Below, in pieces: positions 13,017 through 49,772 of a DNA stretch of 64,000 nt (positions are counted from its first letter, which is position 1; every line of letters starts with the position of its first letter). This DNA comes from Planctomycetota bacterium. GTDB lineage: Bacteria > Planctomycetota > PLA2 > JAEUHO01. The DNA is taken from positions 110,666-174,665 of the forward strand of contig JBFWRP010000004.1 in assembly GCA_050248855.1 (NCBI GenBank), read 5' to 3'. The notes beneath the pieces were generated by a model. It was not told the origin of the DNA, searched no databases, and saw only the letters and a list, made by a program, of their open reading frames with translations. The position numbers and the translations under genes are program-made.

Positions 13017-13125
13017 GCGCATCGGGTCGCCAGGGCGACGGTAGCGTGCCAGCATCGGCGACGACTCGTGGTCTGTTCACTCGAGGAGCCGATGCTGGTG
13101 CGCGACCGAGCATCTGGCGAGCCGC
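13017..13125. repeat. Dispersed ~108-bp hairpin repeat, copy 1 of 3
   Basis: Core CATCGGCGACGACTCGTGGTCTGTTCACTCGAGGAGCCGATG shared with 41079-41185 and 49664-49772; nested inverted repeats. Confidence 0.92.
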
Positions 13126-13151
13126 CCCCGCGCACCCAAGTGCGTAGACGA

Positions 13152-13682
13152 TCAGGGGAAAGCGCGGTGCGAGAGCTGCGAGCGCATGACGACTTGCCCA
13201 TCGGGCTCGACCCAGGCCAAGCCCTTCGCCGTGATCCCGCCCCGCTCGGCCTCGACGAGGGCCTTGCCCTCGGCCGTCACTTCGAGGACGTACACGCGGC
13301 GATAGCCCTGCTGGCGCAAGCCCCGACGCACGAGGTCACGCACGTCGGGATCCCGGTCCTCGTGGGCCGGAAGCGCGTCGGGGCCCGTCAAGGCCAGCGC
13401 CTCGGCCTGCTCGACGGCGTGTGCGACCTGCGCTTCGAGGTCTTCGAGGCGGCGGCCCAGCGTGCCCAGGTGCTGACCGAGATCCTGCGAGGGGCCGGGT
13501 CGCTCCGCCTGGGCGTCCAGCCGCCGGACGGTCTCGCGCAGCTGCTTCTCGAGCGTCGCCAAGCGCGACCTGAGCTGCACCATCTCCAGCGCGAGGTTGC
13601 GGCTCACACGGTGGCTGTGCCACGCGAGCACGACGGTGCCGCCGGCAACCAGAAGCGCGACCAGGGCCAAGACCAGCTCCAT
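13152..13682 (-). CDS. Hypothetical membrane-anchored coiled-coil protein
   Basis: N-terminal TM followed by heptad-rich segment. Confidence 0.65.
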   Translation of the reverse strand: MELVLALVALLVAGGTVVLAWHSHRVSRNLALEMVQLRSRLATLEKQLRETVRRLDAQAERPGPSQDLGQHLGTLGRRLEDLEAQVAHAVEQAEALALTGPDALPAHEDRDPDVRDLVRRGLRQQGYRRVYVLEVTAEGKALVEAERGGITAKGLAWVEPDGQVVMRSQLSHRAFP

Positions 13683-13692
13683 CCCCGCCAGT

Positions 13693-14379
13693 CTACGCGC
13701 CCGGCGCCGGAGCGAGGACGCCGTCGCTCAAGAACAGCTCGTGACGGGCCTGCTCGGCCACACGGGGATCGTGCGTGATCAAGAGGACGGTGGTGCCGGC
13801 CGCGTGCTGCTCGCGGATCAGGTCCAGCACGCGGGCCCCGGAGCCGCTGTCGAGGTTGCCCGTGGGCTCGTCGCAGAGCAGCAAGCGCGGCCGCTTCACC
13901 AGCGCGCGAGCGAGCGCGACGCGCTGCTGCTCGCCACCGGACAGCCGGCCCGGGTCGTGGTCGCGACGCGCCAAGAGGCCCACGCGGTCCAGGGCCTCGT
14001 CGGCGCGCCGCGCCCGTTCGGCGCGTCCCACGCCTTGGTAGAGCAGCGGCAGGGCGACGTTGCGCCAGGCGGGTTCGTCGCGCAGCAGGTGGAAGCGCTG
14101 GAACACGAAGCCGATGGTGCGGCCGCGGAGCGCGGCGAGTGCGGCGTCGTCCAACGTGGCCACGTCCGTCCCCGCGAACACGTAGCGCCCCCCCGTGGGC
14201 CGGTCCAGGCATCCCACGACGTGCAGGAACGTCGACTTGCCACTGCCCGAGGGGCCCATGATGGCGAGGTAGTCGCCCGCCTCGACCACCAGGTCGGTGG
14301 GCCGGAGCGCATGCACGGGCACCGGCCCGGGATAGGTGCGGGCGGCGCCCTCCAAGCGGATCAGGGGCTCGTCGGTCAC
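13693..14379 (-). CDS. ABC transporter ATP-binding protein (LolD/MacB family)
   Basis: GPSGSGKS, LSGGEQQRVALAR, CDEPTGNLD, ITHD. Confidence 0.93.
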   Translation of the reverse strand: MTDEPLIRLEGAARTYPGPVPVHALRPTDLVVEAGDYLAIMGPSGSGKSTFLHVVGCLDRPTGGRYVFAGTDVATLDDAALAALRGRTIGFVFQRFHLLRDEPAWRNVALPLLYQGVGRAERARRADEALDRVGLLARRDHDPGRLSGGEQQRVALARALVKRPRLLLCDEPTGNLDSGSGARVLDLIREQHAAGTTVLLITHDPRVAEQARHELFLSDGVLAPAPGA

Positions 14380-15686
14380 CGCAGTCTCCTTGCCAGGACC
14401 CGTGCCGGGTCGATGGATGCGGCGCGCCACGCGGGCAGCAGGGCCGCCAACGCCCCGATGCCGACGGCGACGGCCACGGCCACCCCCGCGTACCGCATGT
14501 CGAAGCGGAACGGGAACTCCACGATGCGGGCCAGCACGCGCGCGGCCAGCGCGCCCAGGGGCAGCCCGAGCAGTCCTCCGACGAGCGCCGTACCCATGCT
14601 CTCGAACGTGACCTGCGTCGCCACGTCACGCCGCCGTGCGCCCTCGACGCGACGGATCGCCAGCTCGTCGAAGCGCTCGCGCACCGTGACGAGGTTCATG
14701 GTGGCGAGCAAGACGGCGGCCACGAGCGCCACGAGCATCCACACGAGGTTGCCCACGAAGGCGCCGGCTTGCGTGGCGCCCCCCAGCGCCTCCATCCACA
14801 GTCGACGCACGATCACGCCGAGTGCGGGACGCGTCGCCGGGTCGTGCACCGTGGCGATCACCTGCTCCAGCCGCTCGGCGACGGCCGGGACGTCCGTCGG
14901 ACTGCGGGCCACGACGCTGATGCCCGTGAGGTCCAGGTCCTCGCGCTCGGGGTCGGCCGGCAGGTAGACGCAGCGGAAGGCGAGCAGGCTGCTCCCCAGC
15001 AGGCGCGTGCTGCGACCGGCGTCCATTTCCTCGAAGAGGGCGCGGTAGCGCATGGGGTCGCGGAGCACGCCGATCACCTCGACCGTCGGGGCGTCGTCGG
15101 CTGCTCCGACGCGCAGCTCGCGACCCACGAGGTCGCCCGGCTCCTGCACTTCGCGGTCACCGTGGAGGCCGGCCAGGAGCTCGCGCGCGATCGCTTCGTC
15201 GACCACGGCCACGCGGGCCTGGTCGCGCGGAGCGACCTCGTCCTCGCGCCACCAGCGGCCCGCGACCAGCTCCACGTCCACCGTGGCGGCCAGCCCCGTC
15301 GGCGCCTCGACCACCGTGACGCCACCGAGGACACGCGCCCCCGCGCCGACGGGCAGCGCCACGTCGCGCACGCGGTGCGCGCGGGGCACGATCGCCAAGG
15401 CAAGAGAGCCCAAGTCCTCGCGCACGGCCTCGACGTACGTACGGCCGAATCGCTCGCGGCCGGGGCGCAGTCCCAAGACGGGCGCGCGTACCAGGTCGAC
15501 CGTGCGCGCGCCGAACTGCGCGACGTCGTCGCGGATGTCGCGGTCGAAGCCCTGCGAGAGCGAGATCACGTTGGCGACGACGGCCACGGCGGCCGCGCTC
15601 GTGACGGCCGCGAGCAGCGTGCGCAGGGGATGGTGGGCCAGCGAGCGAAGCGCTTGGCCCACGTGGCGTGCGGCGCGGCCGCTCAC
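14376..15686 (-). CDS. ABC transporter permease (MacB/FtsX family)
   Basis: HHPLRTLLA N-terminus, VRERFDELAIRRVEGA, PAWRAASIDP C-terminus. Confidence 0.88.
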   Translation of the reverse strand: MSGRAARHVGQALRSLAHHPLRTLLAAVTSAAAVAVVANVISLSQGFDRDIRDDVAQFGARTVDLVRAPVLGLRPGRERFGRTYVEAVREDLGSLALAIVPRAHRVRDVALPVGAGARVLGGVTVVEAPTGLAATVDVELVAGRWWREDEVAPRDQARVAVVDEAIARELLAGLHGDREVQEPGDLVGRELRVGAADDAPTVEVIGVLRDPMRYRALFEEMDAGRSTRLLGSSLLAFRCVYLPADPEREDLDLTGISVVARSPTDVPAVAERLEQVIATVHDPATRPALGVIVRRLWMEALGGATQAGAFVGNLVWMLVALVAAVLLATMNLVTVRERFDELAIRRVEGARRRDVATQVTFESMGTALVGGLLGLPLGALAARVLARIVEFPFRFDMRYAGVAVAVAVGIGALAALLPAWRAASIDPARVLARRLR

Positions 15687-16978
15687 TCGACCTCCAGCGA
15701 TCGCGCCGGGTCGGCTGCCGCCACGCGGCGTGCCGGCAGCCAAGCGGCCAGGCAGCCGACGACGACGGAGACGAGCAACGCCAGGAGCGCGCGCGACCAG
15801 GGGAAGATCCAGGTGAAGCCGCTCACCGGCTCCAAGCGCACGCGAAGCTCGGCGAGGCCCGCACCCAGCGCGAACCCGAGCACCCCCCCCACCGCGCCGA
15901 GCAGGAGGCCCTCGAACAGCACCTGCCGACCCACGTCCTTGCGCGTGGCCCCCTCGACGCGGTGCAGCGCGATCTCGCCTTGGCGGGCCATCGCGGTGAC
16001 CAGGCCGAGGTTGGCGATGACGACCGCACCCATCGCCAGGCAGGCCAGGAACATGGCCCAGGCCACGGGCCGGAAGCGGTCCAGCCGCGGGTCGAGGAGC
16101 GAAGGCAGCACGAGGGCGTGCCGCGCGACCACGGGCCGGTCGGCGAAGCGCTCGAGCCCGCGCAGCGACACGCCCGCTTCCCGCACGAGGGCGGCGTGTC
16201 GCACGCGCACGACGATCTCGTCGACCGCCGCGTCCGGCGGGGCCGCCGACCACGGGATGTGCACGCTCTCGTCCACGTGCTTCCAGTGCGCCAGCGAGAC
16301 GGGCACGCCGAGGGCGCCGAGCAGGGGCAGCGCCACGCGTCTGTACATCTCGTGGCGCGTGTCGAAGCCCGCTTCGTCCGTTGCCCGCGCCAGGTCCGGG
16401 CGTGGCGCCGTGATGCCGACGATGCGATGGAGCCGCTCGTCGGGCCCACGGATCGCGTCGCCCAGGCGCAGCGCGTCCAAGCCCAGCCGGGCCGCCACAC
16501 CCGCTTCGATGACGCAGACGTCGGGAGGATCTCCCTCCTCCAGCCAGCGACCCTGCGCGAGGCGGAAGCCCCGGGCCGCGCCGGTCTCCGGCGTCGTCGC
16601 GATCCACGTGGGCGCATGCGGTGTCGGCGCCCCCGCGTCGGGGTCGGGCAGCACGCCGGGGGCGGCCACGTCACCCCGGGCCAGGACACGCAGCGCGCCG
16701 GCATGGAGCACGTCGTCGGGGAGCGCTGCGCGCACGGCCTCGAGGTCCGCCAGGGCGAGCGCGTCACCGGGCGCAGTCGGGTCGCGGACGAGCGCGATGC
16801 GGTCCGCGCCCAAGGCGGCTGCCTGCTCGCGAGCCGCCACACGGGTCCCCTCCAGCACGGCCGCCGGCAGGATCGCCACGGCCACGCCCCAGGCCGTGCC
16901 CTGGGCCAGCAGGAAGGTGCGCAGCGGACGGCGCAGCAGGGCCCGGAGGGCCATGTGGAGAGCGAGGAGGAAGCGCAC
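15683..16978 (-). CDS. ABC transporter permease (MacB/FtsX family)
   Basis: RRPLRTFL, EIALHRVEGA, PARRVAAADP; start approximate. Confidence 0.85.
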   Translation of the reverse strand: MRFLLALHMALRALLRRPLRTFLLAQGTAWGVAVAILPAAVLEGTRVAAREQAAALGADRIALVRDPTAPGDALALADLEAVRAALPDDVLHAGALRVLARGDVAAPGVLPDPDAGAPTPHAPTWIATTPETGAARGFRLAQGRWLEEGDPPDVCVIEAGVAARLGLDALRLGDAIRGPDERLHRIVGITAPRPDLARATDEAGFDTRHEMYRRVALPLLGALGVPVSLAHWKHVDESVHIPWSAAPPDAAVDEIVVRVRHAALVREAGVSLRGLERFADRPVVARHALVLPSLLDPRLDRFRPVAWAMFLACLAMGAVVIANLGLVTAMARQGEIALHRVEGATRKDVGRQVLFEGLLLGAVGGVLGFALGAGLAELRVRLEPVSGFTWIFPWSRALLALLVSVVVGCLAAWLPARRVAAADPARSLEVE

Positions 16979-16991
16979 GACGAGGCGGAGG

Positions 16992-18596
16992 CTACCGGCG
17001 CGCTGCCGCAAGTCCGCGTGCGCGTCCGGTCAACGCTCCCGCCACCGGCACCAGCCACGCGCCGAGGAGCGCGAGCGCCGCGAGGCCCAACAACGGCTGG
17101 CGCAGGCGGTGCGCAGGCAAGCTGGCGGGCGCCGCTTCGGCCGTGGCCACGCCGCGCGGGCCGCCGCCGGTCCGTACCAGCCGGGTCAGGCTCGGCGGGC
17201 GTAGGCGATGCGCGCGCCAGCCGGCTCCGATGTCGGGCCCGACCACGTCGTCGACGAGGTTGTCGAGCAGCAGGGGCAGGAACGGCGTGGTGCGCAGCGG
17301 GGGCCGCCCGTCCAGGAGCGAGGCCGTGAGCAGGACGCCGCCCGGCAGCTCGACCAGCAGTGGCCAGGTCTGGTCGCCGTCGCGCCACCCCAGCAGCATC
17401 GTGCCGCCGCGGGCCGCATCGAGCGCGGCCGGCGACAGCCGCACGCTCCCCGCCTCCGCGGCGAGATCGCGAACGAGCGGCGAGGAGGAGCGGACGGGAG
17501 CAGCGCGAGCGGGCACGGCCACGCCGCGATGCCCGCTCGGGGCGGGCACGACCAAGGCCTGGACACCAGCAGCCTCCGGAGGCGTCTCCCCGAGGCGGAT
17601 CACGTGGATCCACGGCCCCCGGGCCGCGTCCCCCAGCCGCATGCGCCCACCGGCTTCCGCCGCGGCCCGCAGCGCGCTTGCGACCTCGCTTTCCAGACCG
17701 GGGTCCAGCAACAGCGCCGCCGTCTCGGCGCCGGCCTCCAGGTCCACCGTGTCGTCCGCGGGGAGGACATCCTCGCGCCCGAGGGCCACCCGAAGCAGAC
17801 CACGACCCGGGGCGTGGGCATCCACGGCCGTCCTCTGCTCGGCCGTCAGCTCCAGCGCGAGCCCCGCGGCGCCGCCAGGCTGCAGGGTCGTCGTGCCCGC
17901 CACCAGGCGCTCGCCGTCCGAGCCGGGCCCGGTCACGACCACGGTCACGTCGGCGGCTCCTCGGCCCTCCCGCGATGCCTCCAGGGTGGTCTGGACGCGC
18001 AAGCCCCCCGTGTCGGTGGGTACGACCCCGACCGCCACGATGCCGACGTTGGCAGGCCCGGGCGGCAGGTCCCAGGTGGCCTCCAGGTCCAACGGCCACC
18101 AGCGCACGCCGGGGCGTGGCGCCGCCGGCAGGACGCGCGCGATCACGTAGCGCTGCCAGGCCGCTCCGAGCCGGGCCAGCGTCTCGAGGTACGCGGGCGA
18201 GGATGCCGTGGGCGTGACGGTCACGACATCGAGCTCGACATCTCCGGGCAGCTCGGCGCGAATCCCGGCCAGGGCGCTCTCGACGGCGGCCTCGTAGCCG
18301 CGGGCACCGCGAAGCCAGCCGCTCTCGACGACGACGCGCGCCATGCGGCGCGAGGCGCCCCGCCCGACCTGTGGCCCGGCCGCGGCGAACGCCGCCGCTG
18401 CGGCGCCGAGCAGCAGCAGGGCGAGCACCGGATCGAACCGACGCGCGCGACGGGTGGCCGAGCCGGACGGGAGATCGGTGAAGAACAGCAGCGACGCCAC
18501 GGTCACGGCGCGTGGCGCCCGGCTCCGGCGGTGCAACCACCAGATCCCCGGCAGCGCCAGGAGCCCGAGCAGGCCCAGCGGCGCGGCGAAGCTCAC
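16992..18596 (-). CDS. BatA-like (N-terminal double-TM) domain protein
   Basis: MSFAAPLGLLGLLALPGIWWLH...VASLLF is a BatA-type N-terminus; follows a DUF58 gene. Confidence 0.75.
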   Translation of the reverse strand: MSFAAPLGLLGLLALPGIWWLHRRSRAPRAVTVASLLFFTDLPSGSATRRARRFDPVLALLLLGAAAAAFAAAGPQVGRGASRRMARVVVESGWLRGARGYEAAVESALAGIRAELPGDVELDVVTVTPTASSPAYLETLARLGAAWQRYVIARVLPAAPRPGVRWWPLDLEATWDLPPGPANVGIVAVGVVPTDTGGLRVQTTLEASREGRGAADVTVVVTGPGSDGERLVAGTTTLQPGGAAGLALELTAEQRTAVDAHAPGRGLLRVALGREDVLPADDTVDLEAGAETAALLLDPGLESEVASALRAAAEAGGRMRLGDAARGPWIHVIRLGETPPEAAGVQALVVPAPSGHRGVAVPARAAPVRSSSPLVRDLAAEAGSVRLSPAALDAARGGTMLLGWRDGDQTWPLLVELPGGVLLTASLLDGRPPLRTTPFLPLLLDNLVDDVVGPDIGAGWRAHRLRPPSLTRLVRTGGGPRGVATAEAAPASLPAHRLRQPLLGLAALALLGAWLVPVAGALTGRARGLAAARR

Positions 18597-19519
18597 GGGA
18601 CTTCCAGGACGAGGCGACGCAGCACGTCCTCGCTGCGCTCCGACGGCGCGAACGGCAGGTAGCGCAAGCCCACGCTACGTGCGTGATGGGCCCACAGGTC
18701 GGCATGGCGCTGCGCGCGCGCGGCGACTTCCGCGGCCACGCGGGCGTCCACGAGCAAGCGCCGCGACTCGCCGGTCTCCGCGTCCTGCGCGACGATGGCC
18801 CCGAGCGGCTCGGGGGCATGCACCTCGGGTGCACGCACGTGCACGAGGGCGCCGCGGACGGCGCGGCCCGCGAGCCCATGCAGCACCCCGGGGTCGGTGC
18901 GGGTCAGCAGGTCCGAGACCAGCAAGAAGCGCGTGCCACGCGCGAGGCGACGCACGACGCGCGGGAGCGTCTGCGCCAGCTCCGCACGCCCCGTCGGGGG
19001 TGTGGCCGAGAGCCGCTCCAACGCGGCCCGTACCTCGCCCGGCTCGCGCCCCTCGGCCAAGGGACGCGCCTCGCCCCCTTGCAGGATGCCCAGCCGCGCC
19101 ACACCGCGACCCGCCACGGCGATCGCGAACGCGAGCGCCGCCAGCCGTGCCGACGCCACGCGCACGCCATGCAGCCCCATGGACGCACTACCGTCGAGCC
19201 AGACCTCGGTGACCAGGTCGCGCTCGGGATCCAGCTGGCGCACGACGACGCGGCCCAGGCGCGCGGCGACGTTCCAGTCGACGCGCTTCAGGTCGTCGCC
19301 GGGGCGGTAGGCGCGATGGCCGCGGAACAGGAAGCGACCGCCTTCCCCGCGCACCGCCCGGCGTCCGTCGGCCACGCCTGCGTGGAGCCTCGGCACCGCC
19401 GCGGGAACCAGCGACAAGAGGCGCAGGAAGGAGGCCGGGAACAGCTCCGGGTCGAGCGCTCCGGCGCCGACGTCCCGACGCGGTGTGGACCGCGTGCCCG
19501 ACGCGCGGCGCGCGTTCAC
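18593..19519 (-). CDS. DUF58 domain protein
   Basis: FRGHRAYRPGDDLKRVDWNVAAR, LDGSASM, VSDL. Confidence 0.85.
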   Translation of the reverse strand: MNARRASGTRSTPRRDVGAGALDPELFPASFLRLLSLVPAAVPRLHAGVADGRRAVRGEGGRFLFRGHRAYRPGDDLKRVDWNVAARLGRVVVRQLDPERDLVTEVWLDGSASMGLHGVRVASARLAALAFAIAVAGRGVARLGILQGGEARPLAEGREPGEVRAALERLSATPPTGRAELAQTLPRVVRRLARGTRFLLVSDLLTRTDPGVLHGLAGRAVRGALVHVRAPEVHAPEPLGAIVAQDAETGESRRLLVDARVAAEVAARAQRHADLWAHHARSVGLRYLPFAPSERSEDVLRRLVLEVP

Positions 19520-20397: not shown

Positions 20398-20503
20398 GCA
20401 CGGAGCCTACCCGGGGCCCGGACGGGGCGGTCGGGGAGTCTGCCCGTGGCACGACGAGCGGGGGTGGCCCGGCTACCCTCATGGCCCCTTGCAAGGAGCC
20501 CCC

Positions 20504-21820: not shown

Positions 21821-21826
21821 GCGCGC

Positions 21827-23764: not shown

Positions 23765-23878
23765 GGTGCACGAGGATACCCGTGCGCCGACCGGGGCCCC
23801 CGCGGGGACCGCCCCGCGACCGGCCCCAGCGCCCGGACGGCCCTCGCCGCGCGGCACCCTGGACCCCAAGATGCCGTC

Positions 23879-38818: not shown

Positions 38819-40027
38819 ATGGCCGCTCTCGCCACGCGCTTGGTGTTCGCCATCGTGCTCGTCCTCGCCTGGGGGCCCGTGGGCGCGCGGGCCGACGACG
38901 AGACCCTCCCGCCCGACATCGAGTTCTTCACGAACCGCGACTGCCGACACTGCGAGGCCGCTGCGGAGTACCTCGCCGGGCTGCAGGCCGACCGACCCGA
39001 GCTGGTCGTCGTCACGCGGCACATCCTGGAGGACGAGGGGGCCCGCGAGCGCTTCGCCGGGCTCGTGGAGCAAGCGGGCGTACAGGCTGCCTCGACGCCG
39101 GCGTTCCTCGTGCAGGGCAAGCTGATCATCGGCTGGACGAGCCCCGTGACGACGGGACGCCTGATCGAGGACATCCTCGAAGGCCTCGAGACCTCCCCCG
39201 AGGAACGAGGCGGAGCGGGCTGCGTCGTCGACCTCTCCAGGGCCCCGGGCGAGGCGCAGCCCCCCTGCGTCGACCCGCGGGACCAGGCGATCGACCTGCC
39301 CCTCTTCGGGTCCGTGAAGCCGCGGGACCTCGGCCTCCCCGTCTTCACGGTCGTGTTGGGCCTCGTGGATGGGTTCAACCCGTGTGCCATGTGGGTGCTG
39401 CTGTTCCTGCTCTCGCTGCTTGTCCACCTGAACAGCCGCTCGCGCATGTTCGCGATCGCCGGCACGTTCGTGCTCGTCTCGGGCCTCGTCTACTTCGCGT
39501 TCATGGCCGCGTGGTTCACCTTCTTCGACGTGATCGGCAAGGCGCGGGCGATCCAGGTGATCCTGGGCGCGGTCGCCGTGTTCATCGGTGCGGTCCATGC
39601 CAAGGACTTCTTCGCCTTCCACAAGGGCTTGACCTTCAGCATCCCGGAAAGCGCGAAGCCCGGCATCTATGCGCGCGTCAACCGCATCCTGAAGGCGGAG
39701 AACATGAAGGCGGCCCTCGTCACGGTGGTCGTCCTCGCCTTCATGGTGAACGTGGTCGAGCTGTTGTGCACGGCGGGGCTTCCGGCCATCTACACGAACG
39801 TGCTGGCGCAGCACGAGCTGCCGCGGGCGCAGTACTACGGCTACATCGCCCTGTACCAGGTGTTCTACATGCTCGACGACATGGCCATGCTGTCGATCGC
39901 CATCTTCACCCTGTCCCGCACACGCCTCCAGGAGACGGGTGGCCGTTGGCTCAAGCTGGTCAGTGGAGTGGTCATGATCGCGCTCGGGCTCGCCTTGGTC
40001 TTCAAGCCAGGACTGCTGTCGTGGTAG
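38819..40027 (+). CDS. Glutaredoxin-like domain fused to Cys-containing multi-TM domain
   Basis: Signal peptide; CRHC; TM domain with DGFNPC and ELLCTAG. Confidence 0.8.
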   Translation: MAALATRLVFAIVLVLAWGPVGARADDETLPPDIEFFTNRDCRHCEAAAEYLAGLQADRPELVVVTRHILEDEGARERFAGLVEQAGVQAASTPAFLVQGKLIIGWTSPVTTGRLIEDILEGLETSPEERGGAGCVVDLSRAPGEAQPPCVDPRDQAIDLPLFGSVKPRDLGLPVFTVVLGLVDGFNPCAMWVLLFLLSLLVHLNSRSRMFAIAGTFVLVSGLVYFAFMAAWFTFFDVIGKARAIQVILGAVAVFIGAVHAKDFFAFHKGLTFSIPESAKPGIYARVNRILKAENMKAALVTVVVLAFMVNVVELLCTAGLPAIYTNVLAQHELPRAQYYGYIALYQVFYMLDDMAMLSIAIFTLSRTRLQETGGRWLKLVSGVVMIALGLALVFKPGLLSW

Positions 40028-41001
40028 GGGCACGGCGCCTGGGCTGGCTGCTCGCGGTCGCCGGGCTTGTCGGCGCCTCGGGGCCACTCGCCGAAGCGCG
40101 GATCGCGCGTGGCATGCGGGCGGCGCCGCTCGACGCACGAACGGCCGACGGGGCGGCCCCGATCCGCCTGTCGGACCGCCTGGGCCGGACGGTCCTCCTG
40201 TCGTTCTTCGGCACCGCCTGTCCGCATTGCCGGCGGGCCGTGCCGCGCTTGAACGAGCTCGCGGCACGCGGGGCGCCGCTCGGCGTGGACGTCCTGGGCG
40301 TCACGCCCGACAGCGGCGCCGAGCTGGCGCGCTTCGTCCAAGGCGAGGGCGTGCGCCACGAGGTGGCCCTCGTGCCGATGGACGCACTCCGCTGGTACGG
40401 CGTGACGACGTACCCCCACGGCGTCCTGGTCGGGCCGGAGGGACGGGTTCTTTGGCAGGGGCCGCTCGACCGGATGACGGACCGCGTGCTCGAGGCGTAC
40501 GTCGCGCGCGTGCGTACCGCGCCCGCGGCACCCGCGCAGTTCGCCCTCGTCGACGCCGAGCGCCGGGCGGGGCGCTACGCGGCCGTTGCGCAGGCCTTGG
40601 AGCGGCACCGACGTTGCGAACGCCTGGACTCGCTCGCGTGCCGCTACGTGCTCGACACCCTGGCGTGGATCGAGTGGTTCGCCGAGGTCTCCCTCGCCGG
40701 CGCGAGTGCCGACGAGCAAGCGGGGCGGTGGGGCTCGGCCGTACGCACGTACGAGGAGCTCGAGGCTGCGTACGCGGGTGCGGCCGTGGAGCGAGATGCG
40801 CGTGCCGCACGCGAGCGCGTCCTCGCCGATCCGACCCGCGCCCGCGAAGCGCGCGCATCGCACGCCCTGGACGAAGCCCGCCGCGCCGGCCGCTGGCAAA
40901 GCACCCCCATCGCGCGCGAACACCTCCAGCGCATGGCCCAAGCCCACCCCGGCACCCAAGCCGCCGCCGAAGCCGCCGACCTCCTCGCCCTCCTCCGCTA
41001 G
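40021..41001 (+). CDS. TlpA/redoxin-family protein with helical C-terminal extension
   Basis: IRLSD..GRTVLLSFFGTACPHC, YGVTTYP..VLVGPEGRV. Confidence 0.78.
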   Translation: MVGARRLGWLLAVAGLVGASGPLAEARIARGMRAAPLDARTADGAAPIRLSDRLGRTVLLSFFGTACPHCRRAVPRLNELAARGAPLGVDVLGVTPDSGAELARFVQGEGVRHEVALVPMDALRWYGVTTYPHGVLVGPEGRVLWQGPLDRMTDRVLEAYVARVRTAPAAPAQFALVDAERRAGRYAAVAQALERHRRCERLDSLACRYVLDTLAWIEWFAEVSLAGASADEQAGRWGSAVRTYEELEAAYAGAAVERDARAARERVLADPTRAREARASHALDEARRAGRWQSTPIAREHLQRMAQAHPGTQAAAEAADLLALLR

Positions 41002-41078
41002 CCCCCCGCCTTCTCCCCTTGCCTTCCTGCCCTCTCTCGCTGCCTTCTCTTCTTGCCTTCTGAACAGCCTTCACCACA

Positions 41079-41185
41079 CATCGGGTCGTCAGGGCGAAGG
41101 CGCCAGCAAGCCATCGGCGACGACTCGTGGTCTGTTCACTCGAGGAGCCGATGGCGCCGCTGCCGCCGAGCACTCGGCGAGCCGC
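41079..41185. repeat. Dispersed ~108-bp hairpin repeat, copy 2 of 3
   Basis: 42-nt core identical to copy 1; flanking arms differ but remain complementary. Confidence 0.9.
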
Positions 41186-41221
41186 CCCAAAACACCTAGA
41201 GGCGTGCTCGAATGGAAGGAG

Positions 41222-41294
41222 TACCCCCAACGGGATTCGAACCCGTGTTACCGGCTTGAAAGGCCGGCGTCCTAGGCCACTGGACGATGGGGGC
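41222..41294 (-). tRNA. tRNA-Glu (anticodon TTC), CCA not encoded
   Basis: Reverse complement GCCCCCATCGTCCAGTGGCCTAGGACGCCGGCCTTTCAAGCCGGTAACACGGGTTCGAATCCCGTTGGGGGTA folds as a cloverleaf. Confidence 0.97.
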
Positions 41295-41360
41295 GCGACG
41301 ATCGAGGCACTTCCTTACCACGGCCTCGGCGTCCTGCCCGCCGACGGGCCTACCCGGGGC

Positions 41361-42434: not shown

Positions 42435-42514
42435 CTTGGACTCCTGGAAGATCGAGAACGTATCCTGCGGGTAACGACGTAGCCTCCTGACCACGACGCT
42501 TCGCCGAAGGTGGG

Positions 42515-43288: not shown

Positions 43289-43326
43289 GGGAGCCTCCGG
43301 CCCGGAAGACGCAAGCGGCGGGCCGC

Positions 43327-44805
43327 TCAGGCGGCGGACGGTAGCGAGAGGCGGAAGCGTGCGCCGCCGAGCGGGCCGCGGTCGACGGCCAACGTGCCGC
43401 CGTGCCGCTCGACGATGCCGTACGAGATGAAGAGCCCCAAGCCCGTCCCACCATCCCGTGTGGTGTAGAAGGGCTCGAAGATGCGGTCGACGAGCTCGGG
43501 AGGCACCCCCGGACCGTCGTCCTCGACGACCAGCTCGACACGCCCTTGCGCGCGCGCCGTGGCGAGCTGCACGTGGCCGCCGCGGCCCGCGGCCTGCAGC
43601 GCGTTCGTGACGAGGTTGAGCACCACCTGGTGCAGCTGGCCGGCATCGCCCAGGACGGCCGGCACCTCGCCACGGTGCCGGACGAGGTCCACGCCCTCGC
43701 GGCGTGCGAACGGCTCGGCTGCGCGCGCGACGTCGTCCGCCAGCTCGTCCAGGTCCACCGCGGCGAACGCGCGCTCGCCGGGCCGGGCCACGTCGAGCAG
43801 CGCACGCACGAGCGCCGAGGCGCGCCGGGCCGTGCGCTCGGCCACCGCGAGGTCCTCCCGGGCACGGCCCTCGCCGACCTCGCTCTTCGCACTCTCCAAG
43901 CACCCGAGGATGCCGCCGAGCAAGTTGTTGAACTCGTGCGCGACGCCCCCGGCCAGCGTGCCGAGCCCGGCCATTTTCGCCGACTGCACGAGCCGATCCC
44001 GCGTGCGGCGCAGCTCGTCGAGCGCGGCGGTGCGCTCGGCCAACGTCGCCTGCAGCTTCGTGGTCTTCTGCGCGACCTCCTGCTCGAGGCCCGCGGTGAG
44101 CTGCGCGATCCGCGTCCGCATGCGTTCGACATCCTCGGCCAGGCGCGAGATCTCGCGCGGTGCGCGACGCGGGGCCGTCACCGGCCGCCGGAGGTCGCCG
44201 CGCGCGATGCGGTCCACGGCCGCCTGCGTCTCGCGCAGCGGACGGACGACCAACCAGACGAGAACGAGCGCCACGAGACCGGCCAAGGCCAGCAGCAGGA
44301 GGCCCAGATGCAGCAGGAGGCGTCGCTGCCGCGTGTCGACGCCGGCCTCGCTGCGGGCCGCCGAGCGCTCGGCCATGCGCTCCAGCGCGGCGGCGATGCG
44401 GCGTTCGCCGTCTTGCGCCAACCGCTCGGCCAGGACATGGATCCGATCGCTTTCCTCGCGGCCCGAGGCGCGAACGCGTGCCACGAGGTCGCGGCCCAGC
44501 GCGTCGACGTCCACGCGGGTGGGATCCTCGGCGGCCCGGTAGAGCGCCAGGGGCTCCTGCTCGAGCCACGTGCGCAGGCGGCGCTGCGCGGACTCCGAAA
44601 GGCCGATCGCGAGAACCTCGGACTGGTCCACGAGGTCCGCCGCCAGCGCGCGCAGGGCCGCGCCGGCCGCTTCCTGTTCCTCGCGAGCCTGCGCGCGTGC
44701 GGCTTCGCGGTCTGCCGCCGCGACCCAGGCCACGAGCAGCGCGCCGCCCACCAGGACCACGCCGCCCACGACCAGCAGCGTCAGCGTCACCAGCGAGCGC
44801 GTCAC
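43327..44805 (-). CDS. Sensor histidine kinase (2 TM, HAMP)
   Basis: AGGVAHEFNN H-box, NLVTNA, DDGPG, FEPFYTT, GTGLGL. Confidence 0.93.
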   Translation of the reverse strand: MTRSLVTLTLLVVGGVVLVGGALLVAWVAAADREAARAQAREEQEAAGAALRALAADLVDQSEVLAIGLSESAQRRLRTWLEQEPLALYRAAEDPTRVDVDALGRDLVARVRASGREESDRIHVLAERLAQDGERRIAAALERMAERSAARSEAGVDTRQRRLLLHLGLLLLALAGLVALVLVWLVVRPLRETQAAVDRIARGDLRRPVTAPRRAPREISRLAEDVERMRTRIAQLTAGLEQEVAQKTTKLQATLAERTAALDELRRTRDRLVQSAKMAGLGTLAGGVAHEFNNLLGGILGCLESAKSEVGEGRAREDLAVAERTARRASALVRALLDVARPGERAFAAVDLDELADDVARAAEPFARREGVDLVRHRGEVPAVLGDAGQLHQVVLNLVTNALQAAGRGGHVQLATARAQGRVELVVEDDGPGVPPELVDRIFEPFYTTRDGGTGLGLFISYGIVERHGGTLAVDRGPLGGARFRLSLPSAA

Positions 44806-45800
44806 CGCGGGCGCTCCGAGGGTCGCCCGCGGCGCAGGCGGTCGGTCGAGGCCAACAGCCCCCATGGCACGTCCAGCCCCTGGCGGTCGCACGCTTCGAG
44901 GTCGATCCACGTCCGCATCGCGGACACCGCGCGCTCCCGGGGCGCGTCCTCTTCGGCCAGCGCCAAGCGCCGCGCCACGTCGGCTGTCACGCGCCCGATC
45001 AGGTCGTGGTCCGGCACGAGCACGAGCGCCGCCCCGTCGCCGAAGCGTCCGCGGTCGTCGCTGACCAGCGGAGCGCCACCGGCACGCGCCGCCGCAAGGG
45101 CCTGGTCGAAGGGCGCGCGCGGCGCCGCATCCAGCCTGAGGTGCAGGACCGCATCGAACACCACGCCTTCGCCTTCGCGACCGGGTGTGCGTTCCCCGAC
45201 GACGTCCACCTCGGCCGCCGCGAGGAACCGCGTGACCGTGGCCTCGGCGCCCGCGCCGCGCCAGAGCACGCGCGGTCGCTCGCGTCCGCACCACGCGCGC
45301 AGGCGCTCCCCCACCCACGCCGCCTCCGCCAGGCCCCGCACGACACCGCGCCGCGGAGCCGCGGGCACGGCCGCGTCCAGCGGCTCGCCGGCAATGGCGT
45401 AGCCCGTGCGCGCCACCACGTGCGGCAGCGCCGCCAGCGCCGCCAGCTCGACGGGCGGCAGGGCCTCGCCCACGACGAAGAGCCAGGGCTCGACGTCGCC
45501 GCGCGCGCGCGCGGCCTCGAAGCGCTCGCGCCAACGACGCACGAGCGCCTCCGGGCCCTGGTCCGGTGGCGGAAGCTCCTCGCAGACGCGCTGCCAGCGG
45601 GCACGCTCGAGCCCCAGGCGGATGCCCTCGTACAGCGCCTGGGCGCCGGCGTCGCCGCGTTCGATCACGGCCCCGTGGACGCAGGCGGGGCTGCCGGCCT
45701 CGTCGCCTCCGCGCGCCGGCGCCGCGCTGGCGACGATCGTGGCCACGAGGCCCAGCAGGGCGAAGAGGCGGACAAGGTGGCCGGGCGGGGACGGGGACAC
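44802..45800 (-). CDS. Exported periplasmic-binding-fold-like protein
   Basis: Signal peptide; GAALVLVPDHDLIGR and TWIDLEAC..GLDVP resemble ABC substrate-binding C-termini. Confidence 0.55.
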   Translation of the reverse strand: MSPSPPGHLVRLFALLGLVATIVASAAPARGGDEAGSPACVHGAVIERGDAGAQALYEGIRLGLERARWQRVCEELPPPDQGPEALVRRWRERFEAARARGDVEPWLFVVGEALPPVELAALAALPHVVARTGYAIAGEPLDAAVPAAPRRGVVRGLAEAAWVGERLRAWCGRERPRVLWRGAGAEATVTRFLAAAEVDVVGERTPGREGEGVVFDAVLHLRLDAAPRAPFDQALAAARAGGAPLVSDDRGRFGDGAALVLVPDHDLIGRVTADVARRLALAEEDAPRERAVSAMRTWIDLEACDRQGLDVPWGLLASTDRLRRGRPSERPR

Positions 45801-45851
45801 GGCCCCACACTACGCTCGGGGCCCCTTCGAACGCAGGAGCCGACCTCGACC

Positions 45852-46880
45852 ATGCGCGTGCTGGGCATCGACACGAGCTGCGACGACACCGCCGCCGCCG
45901 TCCTGGACGGCCCGCGCACGGTGCTCAGCAACGTCGTGGCGTCGCAGCACGACCTCCACGCCGCGTTCGGCGGCGTCGTGCCCGAGATCGCCAGCCGCGC
46001 GCATGCGGAGCGGATCAGTGCCGTGATCGCCACGGCGCTCGCGGAGGCCGGGGCGACGCCGGCGTCGCTGGACGCCATCGCCGTCACGAACCGCCCCGGC
46101 TTGGTCGGCTCCTTGCTCGTCGGCGTGGCCGCGGCCAAGACCCTGGCCTGGGCCTGGGACCTGCCGCTGGTCGGCGTCCACCACATCGAGGCGCACGTGC
46201 TCTCCGCACTGGCCGACCACCCCCAGCTGGAGCCGCCGTTCGTATCCCTCGTGGCCTCCGGCGGCCACACCGCGCTGTACCTCGCCGAGGACCTGGCCAC
46301 GATCCACTGCCTCGGCGCCACCGTGGACGACGCCGCGGGCGAGAGCTTCGACAAGGTCGCCGTGCTGCTCGACCTCCCCCAGCCCGGAGGCCCGCACGTC
46401 TCGCGGCTGGCCGAGGCGGGCAATCCGCAGGCGGTGCGCTTCCCCCGTTCGCGCCCGGGCGCCGACCCGATGGGCTTCTCGTTCTCGGGGCTCAAGACGG
46501 CCGTGCTCTACCACCTCAAGGGCCCGGGCGGAAAGCGCGACGCGCCTGACCGACCCGACCTCGAGACGTCACCCGCCGACGTGGCTGCGTCCTTCGAGAT
46601 GGCCGTGGTCGACGTGCTCGCGACGCGCACGTGCGAGGCGGTCGCCGCCACGGGCGTGCGACGCGTCGCGATCGGCGGCGGCGTGGCGGCCAATCGCACG
46701 CTGCGACGCGTGCTGGCCGAGCGGCTGCCGCGCGACGTGCCGCTCTACGCCCCCTCGCCCACGCTCTGCGTGGACAACGGCGCCATGATCGCGCTGCGCG
46801 GCCATGCGCTGTTGGAGCAGGGCGTTCGCTCCAGCCTGGATCTTGAGGTGTGCGCGACCGGGGACGACGCGGCAGGGTAG
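45852..46880 (+). CDS. tsaD: tRNA N6-adenosine threonylcarbamoyltransferase
   Basis: LGIDTSCDDT, GGVVPEIASRAH, HHIEAH, SGGHT, DDAAGESFDK, DNGAMI. Confidence 0.97.
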   Translation: MRVLGIDTSCDDTAAAVLDGPRTVLSNVVASQHDLHAAFGGVVPEIASRAHAERISAVIATALAEAGATPASLDAIAVTNRPGLVGSLLVGVAAAKTLAWAWDLPLVGVHHIEAHVLSALADHPQLEPPFVSLVASGGHTALYLAEDLATIHCLGATVDDAAGESFDKVAVLLDLPQPGGPHVSRLAEAGNPQAVRFPRSRPGADPMGFSFSGLKTAVLYHLKGPGGKRDAPDRPDLETSPADVAASFEMAVVDVLATRTCEAVAATGVRRVAIGGGVAANRTLRRVLAERLPRDVPLYAPSPTLCVDNGAMIALRGHALLEQGVRSSLDLEVCATGDDAAG

Positions 46881-48197
46881 CTACCGGCCGAGCAGGCGAA
46901 CCGCTTCGGCCAGCTGGGGATCGAGCTCGTCGGCGGGGACGTCCGGATAGCGCGGCGCCTCGCCCCACGGGACGCCCTCTTCGTTGCCCCACTGCTGCAG
47001 GAGGCGCAGCTCCTGCTCGGCCGTGAGCTCGACGACCACGTCGGGCAGCAGCCCCGCGGGCTCGTGGTTGCCCGAGACGCCTTCCCCGGCCGCGTCGCCC
47101 GGGGCTTGGAACGAGCGCCCGCTGGGCAGGTAGTAGCGCGACGTCGTCAGCTTCAGGCCCGCTCCGCGGCGCGGGATCTCAACGATCGACTGCACGAGGA
47201 ACTTGCCGTAGGTGCGCGTGCCCGCGACGACCGCACGCCGGTGGTCCTGGAAGGCGCCCGCCACGACCTCGCTGGCACTCGCGCTGCGGCCGTCGACGAG
47301 GACCACGATGGGCAGGCCCAACAGGTCGGAGGGCTCGGCCCGCGCGCTGATCGAGCGATTGCCCTCGCGCACGCGACCCTCCATGCGCACGATCACGCCG
47401 CGGTCGAGGAAGCGGTCCACGAGGTCGGTGGCCACGGTGAGCAGCCCGCCGCCGTTGTGGCGCAGGTCCAGGACGAGCGCTTCGATGCGCGGGGGGGCGA
47501 AGAAGGCCGCGAGGTCCTGCTCGATCTCGTGCGCGGTCTCCTCGGTGAAATCGGTCAGACGCAGCACGCCGATGCGCCCGCCGGGGCCGACGCGCCGCGT
47601 GAAGGTGGTCGGGGGCCGGATCACGTCGCGGGTGACGTCCACGCGCCGCGCCGTGGCGTGCAGCGCGCCGCCCTCCGGTCGCGGGCCGGGAGCGACGGCA
47701 ACCGTCACCACGCTGCCTGCGGTGCCCTTCAGCCAACGGGTCACCGTGTCGATGTCGACGCCCTCCAGGCGCTGCCCCTGGACGGCCGTGATCGTCTCGC
47801 CGGGCACGATGCCGGCGCGCGCGGCGGGGCCGTCGGGCCACACCCCCACGACGTGCAGCCCCTCGGGTACCGCATCGATCTTGACGCCCAGGCCCGCGTA
47901 GCGGCCCTGCGTGTCTTCCTTCCAGCGGAGGTAGCGCTCGGGCGGGATGAACTCGCAGTAGCGATCGAAATGGACGTAGGCGTCCATCGCCCGGTAGAAG
48001 GCCTCGCGCGCCGCCTCGCCATCGAGCTCGTCGACGTAGCTGGCCTGCACCTGCTCGCGCACGAAGCGCGCCATCGGCTCGTCCCACCAGGTCTCGGCGC
48101 CGCCGCCCCGGGCCCCAGCGCGCCGCGAGGCAAAGACGAACGCCGCGAACAGCAGCAGGATCGAGAGGCTGAGGACGGCAGCGGTCAGCGGTCGCAT
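46881..48197 (-). CDS. S41 family C-terminal processing peptidase (PDZ)
   Basis: GLGV PDZ loop, LDLRHNGGG, SASASEV, TYGK. Confidence 0.92.
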   Translation of the reverse strand: MRPLTAAVLSLSILLLFAAFVFASRRAGARGGGAETWWDEPMARFVREQVQASYVDELDGEAAREAFYRAMDAYVHFDRYCEFIPPERYLRWKEDTQGRYAGLGVKIDAVPEGLHVVGVWPDGPAARAGIVPGETITAVQGQRLEGVDIDTVTRWLKGTAGSVVTVAVAPGPRPEGGALHATARRVDVTRDVIRPPTTFTRRVGPGGRIGVLRLTDFTEETAHEIEQDLAAFFAPPRIEALVLDLRHNGGGLLTVATDLVDRFLDRGVIVRMEGRVREGNRSISARAEPSDLLGLPIVVLVDGRSASASEVVAGAFQDHRRAVVAGTRTYGKFLVQSIVEIPRRGAGLKLTTSRYYLPSGRSFQAPGDAAGEGVSGNHEPAGLLPDVVVELTAEQELRLLQQWGNEEGVPWGEAPRYPDVPADELDPQLAEAVRLLGR

Positions 48198-48236
48198 CCG
48201 CGCTCCTTCGTCGGCAGTCGGTCGGGGTGCCCGCCG

Positions 48237-49490
48237 TCAGGCCGACGGGTCCGCCGACGCACCGGGGAGATCGGGCGGCTCCCCGGGGGTCGGCCCGTCG
48301 AGGCTACCGAGGAGTTCGGGATCGAGCGGAGCGATCTTCCTGCGCTTGCGCTTGCCGCGGGTCGGCGAGAGGGCCCGCATGGACTCGAGACGGCCGTAGC
48401 ACAGCATCCGGTCGTGGGCCTCGATCACGCGGTGCCCGCGGGGGTTGGAGATCACGCCCGTGCCGCGCTGCAGCGTCAGCACGACGATGTCCTTCTCGCG
48501 CAGCCCCGAGGTCTCGATGGTCCGCCCGACGAGCTCGTGGGCGGCGGGAATCGAGATCTCGGCCACCCCGTAGCCGCGGGTCACGGTGAGGCGCTGGCGC
48601 AGGTCGATCTCGGGGAAGTCCGTCTGGTCGGCGATGTAGTCGACGATGGCGCCGGCGACGTCGAGCCCCGTAGCGTGCTCGATGCCTTCCAACCCCGGCG
48701 AGCTGTTGACCTCCATGACCAGCGGACCCTCGTCGCTCTCGAGCAGGTCCACGCCGGCCACCCGGAGCCCCATGATCTGGGCGGCGCGCACGGCCGTCGT
48801 CTCGAAGGCCGGCTCCAGCTGGACCGCGCCCACCGTGCCGCCGCGGTGGACGTTGCTGCGGAACTCGTCGCCCTGCGCGGTGCGGCGCATGGCCGCCACG
48901 ACGCGGTCGCCGACCACGATCGCCCGGAGGTCGGTGCCCCGGCTCTCGCGGATGAAGCGCTGCACGAGCACGTTCTGCCGGGCGGACTGCAGGGTCTCGA
49001 TGATCGCCTCGGCGACCTTGGTGGTCTCGGCCAGGATCACGCCGACTCCCTGCGTGCCCTCGAGGATCTTGATGATGATGGGCGCGCCGCCCAGGCGTTC
49101 GATGGCCGGGAGCACGTCCTCGCGATCGCGCACGAACGTCGTGTGCGGGATGCCGATGTCGTGCCGGGACAGGATCTGGAGCGAGCGCAGCTTGTCGCGC
49201 GCGTTGGCAATGCCGTTCGCCGTGTTGGGCGTGTACACGTCCATCTGCTCGAACTGGCGGACGACGGCCGTACCGAAGTACGTCACGGAGGCCCCGATGC
49301 GCGGCAGGATCGCGTCGACGCGACGCATGGGCTTGCTGCGGTACCAGAGAGTGGGCTCGCCGTGCTCCAGCTCGATGGCAAAGCGCAGCGTGTCGCGCAC
49401 CTTGGGCGTGTGGCCGCGCTGCAACGCAGCCTGGCGCAGGCGACGGGTGCTGTAGCAGCCGGGGGCCGTGGAGAGGATGGCGAGCCGCAC
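48237..49490 (-). CDS. rimK: RimK-family alpha-L-glutamate ligase with C-terminal TrkA-C-like domain
   Basis: YSTRRL, PRIGAS, GTQGVGV, FRSNVHRGG, EVNSSPGLEGIE. Confidence 0.92.
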   Translation of the reverse strand: MRLAILSTAPGCYSTRRLRQAALQRGHTPKVRDTLRFAIELEHGEPTLWYRSKPMRRVDAILPRIGASVTYFGTAVVRQFEQMDVYTPNTANGIANARDKLRSLQILSRHDIGIPHTTFVRDREDVLPAIERLGGAPIIIKILEGTQGVGVILAETTKVAEAIIETLQSARQNVLVQRFIRESRGTDLRAIVVGDRVVAAMRRTAQGDEFRSNVHRGGTVGAVQLEPAFETTAVRAAQIMGLRVAGVDLLESDEGPLVMEVNSSPGLEGIEHATGLDVAGAIVDYIADQTDFPEIDLRQRLTVTRGYGVAEISIPAAHELVGRTIETSGLREKDIVVLTLQRGTGVISNPRGHRVIEAHDRMLCYGRLESMRALSPTRGKRKRRKIAPLDPELLGSLDGPTPGEPPDLPGASADPSA

Positions 49491-49663
49491 GAGGCGTCTC
49501 CAGGGGAAGGGGGCGGGAGTCTACCCCCCTCCTCCGGGACCCAAGCGTTCAGGCCTGGGCTGGGCGCCGGAGCAGCGCCTGCCACGCACGGCACCCACTT
49601 GCCTCACCCGAGAGCCGCCCCCCCAGGGTGCGCCGACGCCGCTTGGATCTGAGCGCGGCCGCC

Positions 49664-49772
49664 GCGCATCGGGTCGTCAGGGCGACGGTAGCGCGCCAGC
49701 ATCGGCGACGACTCGTGGTCTGTTCCCTCGAGGAGCCGATGCTGGTGCGGGACCGAGCATCTGACGAGCCGC
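49664..49772. repeat. Dispersed ~108-bp hairpin repeat, copy 3 of 3
   Basis: Near-identical to copy 1, with a compensatory C-G to T-A change in the outer stem. Confidence 0.92.

Follow-up and report, generated by a model that had tools for sequence, protein, structure and literature searches.

Long hairpin repeats beside gene 3' ends in Planctomycetota genomes: a candidate family of small non-autonomous mobile elements

The DNA analyzed here is a stretch of 64,000 nucleotides (hereinafter, the window) from the genome of a Planctomycetota bacterium (NCBI GenBank assembly GCA_050248855.1, contig JBFWRP010000004.1, positions 110,666 to 174,665 of the forward strand). It carries three copies of a long intergenic hairpin, the rod, all on the plus strand and 28 and 8.6 kb apart (copy 1, 13017-13125; copy 2, 41079-41185; copy 3, 49664-49772; the initial annotation of the window gave these positions correctly). 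With moderate confidence, these hairpins can be regarded as the part that is conserved in a family of small, non-autonomous mobile elements, a family that is specific to one lineage and resembles repetitive extragenic palindromes (REPs) and bacterial interspersed mosaic elements (BIMEs), or miniature inverted-repeat transposable elements (MITEs), in the way it works but is built differently. The initial annotation had described a new family with selected pairing, conserved loops and a strand bias, all of which stand, and had linked it to HUH transposases of the REP-associated tyrosine transposase (RAYT) type, a link that the present analysis does not bear out.

Distribution, fold and placement of the rod

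Far from being a three-copy element, as initially described, the rod recurs throughout the source genome (G000; 4.53 Mb in 55 contigs, 71.7% G+C, 96% complete). The 42-nt core that the three copies were said to share, and do share apart from a single substitution in copy 3, has 18 matches in this genome with up to 3 mismatches, and the 29-nt apex has 21 with up to 4 mismatches, one of these being a half copy and another carrying an insertion of about 47 nt in the left arm. A covariance model built from 49 distinct copies finds 48 matches, dispersed over 29 contigs. Beyond the source genome, a scan for the apex in one genome per species detects 30 loci (25, 4 and 1) in three other records, all of which are metagenome-assembled genomes of a Planctomycetota bacterium. 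Model matches are present in 19 of the 40 genomes of the order, all in one family: 18 of 28 genomes of the source genome's own family (f1) have them, compared with none of the 11 genomes of the sister family (f2), which serves as the control for false matches in G+C-rich DNA. Among the relatives, the sister species G002 (75% complete) has 53 matches, G006 has 42 and G015 (92% complete), which belongs to another genus, has 21.

An Rfam search of the window at the gathering score yields only tRNA, and a search with three full units and their flanks at E-values up to 1 yields only a chance match to SCARNA20 elsewhere (E 0.3), in agreement with the initial view that this is a new interspersed repeat family. 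A pattern scan of viral contigs gives no matches, and neither does a distant DNA search of plasmids with the copy 3 unit; a metagenome scan gives matches in 20 short contigs. The DNA sequencing runs that contain the stretch come from landfill, wastewater and sludge.

Each of the three window copies folds on the plus strand as a single rod, as originally proposed, with energies of -69.8, -57.5 and -69.0 kcal/mol for copies 1, 2 and 3 (z -5.1, -2.7 and -4.8), and the reverse strand folds more weakly (-58.3, -53.3 and -61.2 kcal/mol). The compensatory changes reported for the outer stem (TCGCCAG/CTGGCGA versus TCGTCAG/CTGACGA) and for the inner stem (AGCATCGGC/GCCGATGCT versus GCCATCGGC/GCCGATGGC) are indeed present. 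When applied to the 49 copies, RNAalifold predicts 34 pairs, 20 of which show double (compensatory) changes, compared with 6.9 +/- 1.4 such pairs in shuffles. Standard pairs occupy 96.9% of the alignment cells, against 90.4% with shuffled partners and 30-43% with slid partners, and none of the 500 shuffles reaches the observed value on any of five measures. Thus, covariation exceeds the chance level, and the claim that the pairing is under selection is upheld.

The rod is 108-153 nt long and combines covarying stems with conserved apical and internal-loop sequences, a contrast that had been noted within the window and that extends across genera. The apical 30 nt (GACGAC-stem-loop-stem-GAGGAG) are nearly invariant across genera, and within the source subfamily the apical helix and the flanking loops do not vary at all. 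In other genera, the stems are rebuilt almost completely, and what is kept is GACGAC(T/G)CGTGG…CCAC(T/G)CGAGGAG together with the lower loop, GGGGCGAAGG / CCGAGCATCC. Several variants of the apex exist in the source genome, including one with an additional 34-nt hairpin and one with GAGGACGAC on either side of the apical stem.

Wobble pairing in the rod is one-sided, with G·T in 177 and A·C in 10 of the 1666 cells (15 versus 6 of the 34 pair columns), and the same tendency is seen in other genera (57 versus 16 cells). The G·T columns alternate with G-C and A-T, which is the pattern expected of pairing selected on the rod strand and is not expected if selection acted on mismatches of the other strand. 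The original observation that G·T pairs favor the plus strand, that is, the strand antisense to the neighboring gene, therefore holds. The upper internal loop (GGC|GAC|GA|CUCG … CGAG|GA|GCC) matches the standard kink-turn pattern as outlined in PMC5061560, an assignment made by sequence pattern alone; the pattern is found in apex types A, B and C and is lost in types A' and D.

The placement of the rods was analyzed for 42 of the 48 model matches, the other six (60-141 nt) being truncated or low-scoring. None of the 42 overlaps a called gene. On the 3' side, the neighboring gene lies on the opposite strand in 32 of the 42 cases (two-sided p 0.0009), and in 25 its stop codon is located between -7 and +34 nt from the end of the match. 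On the 5' side, both arrangements occur, 20 neighbors being on the same strand and 21 on the opposite strand, at distances of 49-1333 nt; upstream of nine rods, a same-strand stop codon is found at 49-83 nt, where the left end of the short unit lies. In 15 other genomes, represented by the 36 best-scoring matches rather than a random sample, the 3' neighbor is on the opposite strand in 28 of 36 cases and its stop is within 40 nt in 21. These stop codons are strongly enriched in TAG, which accounts for 18 of 25 in the source genome and 17 of 21 in the other genomes, compared with 36.6% of the 3391 called genes (p 3e-4 and 4e-5, respectively). The unit accordingly lands, or survives, right beside TAG stop codons. 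The orientation of the rods does not follow local GC skew, the rod strand being G-rich in 20 and C-rich in 22 of the 42 cases, although skew is weak in this genome.

Larger units and turnover

The initial annotation delimited the element at about 108 bp, which is too small: the repeated unit extends beyond the rod by about 30-55 nt of linker on the 5' side and about 15-25 nt of tail on the 3' side, as seen in alignments of the flanks of the genomic copies. The 5' linker is semi-conserved, and a search for a consensus structure in it found none. The units in which the rods sit measure approximately 210–330 bp. In the source genus, a subset of units that includes copy 3 is bounded by terminal inverted repeats of 10-14 bp (GTAAGCGTTCAG… / …CTGAACGCTTAC) and accompanied by 9-bp target duplications. 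A 37-nt right-end motif occurs 32 times in the source genome, with the rod apex missing nearby at 25 of these sites, and a left-end motif can be recognized for 11 of these right ends, with a single element, read in both directions, accounting for two of them. The 9-mers that flank these end pairs are identical at 7-9 of 9 positions in 10 of the 11 cases (two 9/9, five 8/9 and three 7/9; the remaining pair is 1/9), compared with 0-6 of 9 in shifted controls. The units bounded by the inverted repeats are 211 to 315 bp long, one of them is inserted in an otherwise perfect hairpin, and at three copies TAG directly precedes the 9-bp duplication. In the source genus, a subset of the rods thus also appears to travel in an inverted-repeat vehicle with 9-bp duplications, which for these copies would imply staggered cleavage by a DDE-type transposase.

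The rod units share their surroundings with other repeats. Hairpins of a different family, GTACGGAG…CTCCGTAC, are present upstream of about 10 rods when only exact matches are counted; if one mismatch is tolerated, 23 of the 42 rods have such a hairpin upstream and 7 have one downstream. A module of about 100 nt (…GTTCCGCGCTC(A/C)CGCGCGGATTCGGTGCTCCGGC…CCCCTGCACCCCTCACGG) takes the place of half of the rod, in one orientation or the other, in otherwise typical units of the source genome (C5:21694, C2:204343, C6:119813, C8:99805-100007 and C30:36371), so that the repeats form mosaics. In two other genera, rods with their flanks, some with different apexes, are arranged head to tail in tandem (locus L106 of G043, 1300-1830, and locus L112 of G010, 1329-1620). 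The last 600 nt of many contigs of the source genome (for example, the right end of C30, C23, C46 and C40) match hundreds of sites in the genome, in up to 526 blastn pieces, indicating that the assembly breaks in short interspersed or tandem repeats.

The positions of the rods turn over between species. Among 21 copies, no more than 2 have both flanks in common with a rod of the sister species; similarly, of 21 rod-adjacent genes from other genomes, 16 have a usable open reading frame (ORF) and a match in the source genome, and a rod lies beside the match in only 2 of these 16. A search for empty sites in G001, G002 and G006 with the DNA of whole loci failed, either on account of excessive divergence between the intergenic sequences or because contigs terminate at the repeat. 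A comparison anchored on proteins is more informative: five loci of the sister species were compared with their counterparts in the source genome, three of which align on both flanks and two on one flank only. At all three loci that align on both flanks, the sister species has a block of 235, 288 or 328 bp containing a rod in place of 0, 8 or 16 bp in the source genome. The empty-site comparison that the initial annotation had suggested thus reveals presence or absence at orthologous sites, filled in the sister species and empty in the source genome in three of three cases; given that two genomes are compared, this reflects either insertion in one lineage or deletion in the other. The three empty sites all end in TAG. 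At one filled site, the stop codon lies inside the inserted block, such that the gene of the sister species ends in …DEG and its counterpart in …DEQR before the stop. A possible diverged copy of a gene end inside the block at locus L039 of the sister species has a local alignment score of 19, compared with 13-20 in unrelated comparisons, and is not claimed.

Some rods stay in place. One orthologous rod shared by the source genome and the sister species differs at 3 of about 100 positions, although the coding flanks are 80-86% identical and the remaining spacer cannot be aligned. Upstream of this shared rod (locus L041, G002:C12, versus locus L009, G000:C9), the spacer of the sister species alone contains a second, inverted rod of another apex type. 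In another case, the same zinc-ribbon gene (…RNDVYAVQNR…) is directly followed by a rod in the source genome and in G015, that is, in two genera, with compensated stems. These two copies, one conserved in place between species and the other across genera, suggest that some rods have been taken over by the host.

Such conservation is relevant to the main rival explanation, namely, that the rod is primarily a host RNA element: a protein-binding, kink-turn-bearing hairpin in antisense transcripts, spread by other vehicles, that would act as an antisense insulator or a protein-loaded hairpin, ending or processing transcription that enters the 3' end of a gene, or else as a cis-antisense RNA on the stop-codon region. 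We regard this possibility as unlikely but deserving of serious attention, given that selection for the fold acts on the strand antisense to the adjacent gene, that rods in 15 other genomes keep the same position just outside the stop codon, that rods are conserved in place between species and genera with compensated stems, and that the sequence of the lower loop, CGA(A/C)G/CGAG, is compatible with tandem G·A pairs. Against it, no run of T follows the rod, a search for a conserved promoter or 5' structure found none, the kink-turn pattern disappears in apex variants A' and D, and a search of the 40 genomes of the order found no protein of the L7Ae family. A 234-nt contig from an RNA library covers positions 49635-49720 of the window, half of a rod, with 8 differences (about 91% identity), and might represent DNA or another copy. 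Furthermore, the host RNA explanation does not account for the turnover of positions between species or for the enrichment of TAG.

In its strongest form, the RNA explanation would make the rod a transcribed kink-turn RNA that serves a new class of bacterial mobile elements, which home to TAG stops, both as their functional component and as the handle by which they are recognized, with a dedicated protein binding the invariant apex and placing the unit immediately 3' of TAG in a single orientation. This scenario appears decidedly improbable. If it is true, each copy would equip the end of a gene with an antisense hairpin loaded with protein, and the rod, instead of a passive repeat, would amount to a mobile RNA gene that targets stop codons.

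For the mobile element family that we favor, the following course of events can be envisaged. A protein supplied in trans would recognize the apex in its folded state, whether in single-stranded DNA or in RNA, and then move or copy the unit; for the copies bounded by inverted repeats, the enzyme would be a DDE-type transposase making staggered cuts next to TAG. Some copies might have been retained because a stable hairpin just outside the 3' end of a gene is useful or harmless; a useful role could be, for example, to stop or process transcripts that enter the gene from the other side.

Candidate enzymes and the three loci of the window

The initial annotation viewed the hairpin as a possible substrate of an HUH/RAYT-type transposase. 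In this scheme, the rod would be a single-stranded DNA hairpin mobilized by an HUH (Y1) enzyme, either as a giant REP, or REPIN (a hairpin-forming REP doublet), served by a RAYT, or as a palindrome-associated element of the IS200/IS605 type that inserts beside a short target such as TAG. The source genome has two Y1_Tnp genes, both outside the window; the fold is strand-specific and contains G·T pairs, TAG directly adjoins the end of the element, most copies outside the inverted-repeat subset lack clear duplications, and the GTACGGAG hairpins that flank the Y1_Tnp genes tend to lie upstream of rods, as described above. Nevertheless, we consider an HUH substrate to be quite improbable. Both Y1_Tnp genes are flanked by the GTACGGAG…CTCCGTAC family and not by rods, and the sole model match near them (30 bits) sits on a GTACGGAG hairpin. 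Y1_Tnp is encoded in 10 of the 11 genomes of the rod-free sister family and is not found in the rod-rich genomes G002, G006 and G015; within the family f1, the counts are 13/6 versus 4/6 (Fisher p 0.24). In addition, there is no replication-strand bias (20 versus 22), the polarity is wrong, with TAG located 5' of the element on the strand that folds worse, and a subset of the copies has 9-bp duplications.

The two Y1_Tnp (RAYT-like) genes encode proteins of 342-343 amino acids and are bracketed by long hairpins at locus L094 (G000:C24:12589-15918; hairpins at 1300-1430 and 2470-2615) and at locus L095 (G000:C32:20287-23523; hairpins at 680-710 and 1810-1850). The GTACGGAG 8-mer and its complement occur 349 times in the source genome, including 92 forward/reverse pairs 30-200 nt apart. 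It is probable that these hairpins and the two genes make up a true REPIN-RAYT system of this Planctomycetota genome. The second Y1_Tnp gene has a transposase of the IS110 family as its immediate neighbor (DEDD_Tnp_IS110 and Transposase_20; L095, 2102-3181, minus strand).

Another candidate system is the integron. The attC sites of integrons are imperfect hairpins that follow the stop codon of an ORF, fold on the template strand and are conserved in structure more than in sequence. The rod shares these features, and …TGAAC / GTTCA… is found at the ends of the inverted-repeat-bounded copies, such that the rod could be imagined as an attC-like site, with the bottom strand folded and recombined by a tyrosine recombinase and the gene plus rod making up a cassette. 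This is hardly credible, given that no integron integrase (TIGR02249) is detected in the source genome (the best match scores 82 bits against a cut-off of 265) and that only 7 of the 40 genomes of the order have one above the cut-off, five of them in the rod-free family. Moreover, rods are dispersed beside ordinary genes and a tRNA instead of forming arrays, and recombination of this kind makes no 9-bp duplications. Loci L126-L131, in G029, G032, G028, G025, G021 and G014, are among those with integron integrases above the cut-off.

Retroposition comparable to that of short interspersed nuclear elements (SINEs) would require a plus-strand RNA ending in …CUA that is reverse-transcribed from a nick after TAG and generates target duplications of variable length. 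The fold is indeed strand-specific and RNA-like, the minus strand of the element continues directly from TAG on the gene strand, and the flanking repeats vary from 9 to about 45 nt. Within f1, reverse transcriptase genes are also more common in genomes with rods (13/6 versus 2/8, p 0.02, with no correction for kinship). However, the source genome, with its 48 rods and 96% completeness, has no RVT_1 candidate, and the exact 9-bp duplications of inverted-repeat-bounded copies argue for a DNA transposase. In five relatives (G003, G005, G006, G019 and G042; loci L168-L172), the reverse transcriptases form one orthologous group of proteins of about 300-400 amino acids that bear the motif RQxVTGLVVN, which we take to be a hallmark of retrons, and no rods are found within the 3.8-6.5 kb around them. 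Taken together, these findings make a SINE-like origin very doubtful, and a retron msd was rejected on the same grounds, the lack of RVT_1 in the source genome and of rods around the five genes. Four of these reverse transcriptase genes (in G006, G003, G042 and G019) are preceded by a conserved stretch (…TTGGCGGTG…GCGATGTTTCGTCG…CCGGGC…) that is unrelated to rods and may be their non-coding RNA.

Several observations weigh against the interpretation of the rods as the core of a mobile element family. Among the integrase, Y1_Tnp, reverse transcriptase and L7Ae genes surveyed in the 40 genomes, none co-occurs convincingly with rods, and no mobilizing enzyme was found. Nor was an autonomous element found: there are 26 inverted-repeat-like sites in the source genome and no pair of them encloses a gene, although such an element could be missing from an assembly whose 55 contigs break in repeats. 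Symmetric inverted repeats should insert in either direction, so that the orientation bias calls for selection or a strand-specific mechanism. The inverted repeats and 9-bp duplications are confined to a subset of the copies in the source genus and are absent around the rods of other genera. Some rods have longer flanking repeats of 13 to about 45 nt, partly read by eye (exact repeats of 13, 14 and 17 nt, compared with a control maximum of 10), which may point to several mechanisms. The conserved positions could be due to selection on retained copies, but also to gene conversion among copies. In four sequencing runs, contigs break off within the repeats or next to them, with no contig spanning a rod; the runs therefore supply no empty-site or expression evidence, and the single RNA-library contig is no evidence of transcription. 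Finally, the placement statistics for other genomes come from best-scoring matches, and the gene calls are those of our own codon-score caller, trained on 525 long ORFs, rather than a curated annotation; in the window, this caller predicts 53 genes that cover 94% of the sequence and recovers the expected neighbors.

At the three loci of the window, each rod lies a short distance past the 3' end of a minus-strand gene, as initially reported: the rods end at 13125, 41185 and 49772, and the genes end at 13152, 41221 and 49811, at distances of 27, 36 and 39 nt, respectively. Copy 1 has a type A apex (model match 13012-13130, corresponding to G000:C4:123677-123795). It is preceded by the semi-conserved 5' linker (…CCATCCAGGTCCAAGCCGTG…CGCGCATCGG) at 12960-13016, with an approximate left limit drawn from the alignment of the flanks of genomic copies, and followed by the 3' tail (CCCCCGCGCACCCAAG…) at 13126-13151, which reaches the stop codon of the neighboring gene. 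This stop codon, a TGA, is located 22 nt past the end of the model match and belongs to a gene for a 176-amino-acid protein (13152-13682, minus strand; our call) in which a Pfam scan recognizes no family.

The middle arms of copy 2 (model match 41071-41190) are rebuilt. This copy lies between a gene of the AhpC/TSA family on the same strand (40021-41001, plus), the stop codon of which is 70 nt upstream of the model match, and a tRNA-Glu (TTC) gene identified by ARAGORN and by the Rfam tRNA model (41221-41294, minus), the 3' end of which is 36 nt past the rod.

Copy 3 (model match 49659-49777) belongs to a complete unit of 261 bp on the plus strand (49542-49802), bounded by the inverted repeats CAAGCGTTCAG on the left (49542-49552) and TGAACGCTTG on the right (49793-49802). 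The left 35-37 nt of this unit are common to the long-form copies at C23:2562 and C3:38105. An imperfect 9-bp direct repeat flanks the unit, with the left copy CTCCGGGAC at 49532-49540 and the right copy CGGCGGGAC at 49803-49811; the two match at 7 of 9 positions with a 1-nt offset, so that the duplication, solid at other copies, is weak at this one. The right copy of the repeat overlaps the stop codon of the adjacent gene. This gene encodes a LivF-like ATPase of an ABC transporter (…EVRKAYLG, TAG; 49811-50515, minus), with the stop codon 8 nt from the right end of the unit; on the other side, a RimK-like ATP-grasp gene (48237-49490, minus) starts 51 nt from the left end.

A tRNA-like reading of the 5' linker, based on a GGTTCGAGTC-like motif recognized by eye, was dropped because its stems are unpaired and ARAGORN calls nothing there in the window. 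Elsewhere in the window, at 56166-56248 (plus), ARAGORN calls an 83-nt tRNA-Ala with the anticodon AGC for which the Rfam tRNA model is silent at the gathering score; this may be a false call or an unusual tRNA.

Comparison with known systems

The rod departs from REPIN-RAYT systems, attC sites and IS200/IS605 elements in their defining features and shares those of MITEs only in part. As with REPs, BIMEs and REPINs, the rods are extragenic and lineage-specific repeats present in tens of copies per genome that form hairpins with compensatory changes, concentrate at gene 3' ends and combine with other palindromic modules into mosaics. REPs, however, are described in PMC3733652 as units of 20-40 bp or doublets of such units, whereas the rod is a single structure that spans 108-153 nt, contains 34 pairs and has an invariant apex as well as two internal loops that are conserved. 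The rods also differ from REPs in lacking an association with RAYT, in the presence of 9-bp duplications and inverted repeats in a subset of the copies, and in their fixed orientation relative to the neighboring stop codon.

Among MITEs, such as Correia elements, ERIC/IRU and RU-1/2/3, the rod units have counterparts in their size below 350 bp and lack of coding capacity, in the terminal inverted repeats and fixed target duplication of the inverted-repeat-bounded units, and in the presence/absence polymorphism between related genomes. Unlike in MITEs, the part conserved across genera is the internal rod and not the ends, the pairing is selected on one strand only, the units are set against TAG stop codons, and no parent insertion sequence is found for them in the source genome.

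The likeness to attC is confined to geometry, that is, an imperfect hairpin of comparable length directly after the stop codon of an ORF with a template-strand fold; the absence of an integron integrase from the source genome and of arrays sets the rods apart, as does their location among ordinary chromosomal genes and a tRNA. In IS200/IS605 elements, a strand-specific hairpin at the ends is recognized and insertion occurs beside a short target, without inverted repeats. The rod is similar in its strand-specific hairpin and short adjoining target, but it shows neither a replication-strand bias nor co-occurrence with Y1_Tnp, a subset of the copies has 9-bp duplications, and the TAG target does not lie on the side of the folding strand that such an element would require.

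Much work has been devoted to the interspersed hairpin repeats of Proteobacteria, and there are few descriptions of such repeats from Planctomycetota, for which a literature search on repeats returned only reports of short GTAG-tagged REPs. The combination found here is unusual: a long rod with pairing under selection on a single strand, an apex that different genera have in common, mobility with target duplications at some of the copies, and a nearly constant placement against TAG in a fixed orientation. On the practical side, these repeats break assemblies of the respective genomes and can change the ends of genes, as in the …DEG versus …DEQR case. If a protein partner exists, it recognizes a folded nucleic acid together with the context of a stop codon, which bears on both transposon targeting and the biology of gene 3' ends. 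Compared with the known systems, the rods look like mobile, protein-recognized hairpins of a new kind rather than a catalogued RNA or repeat.

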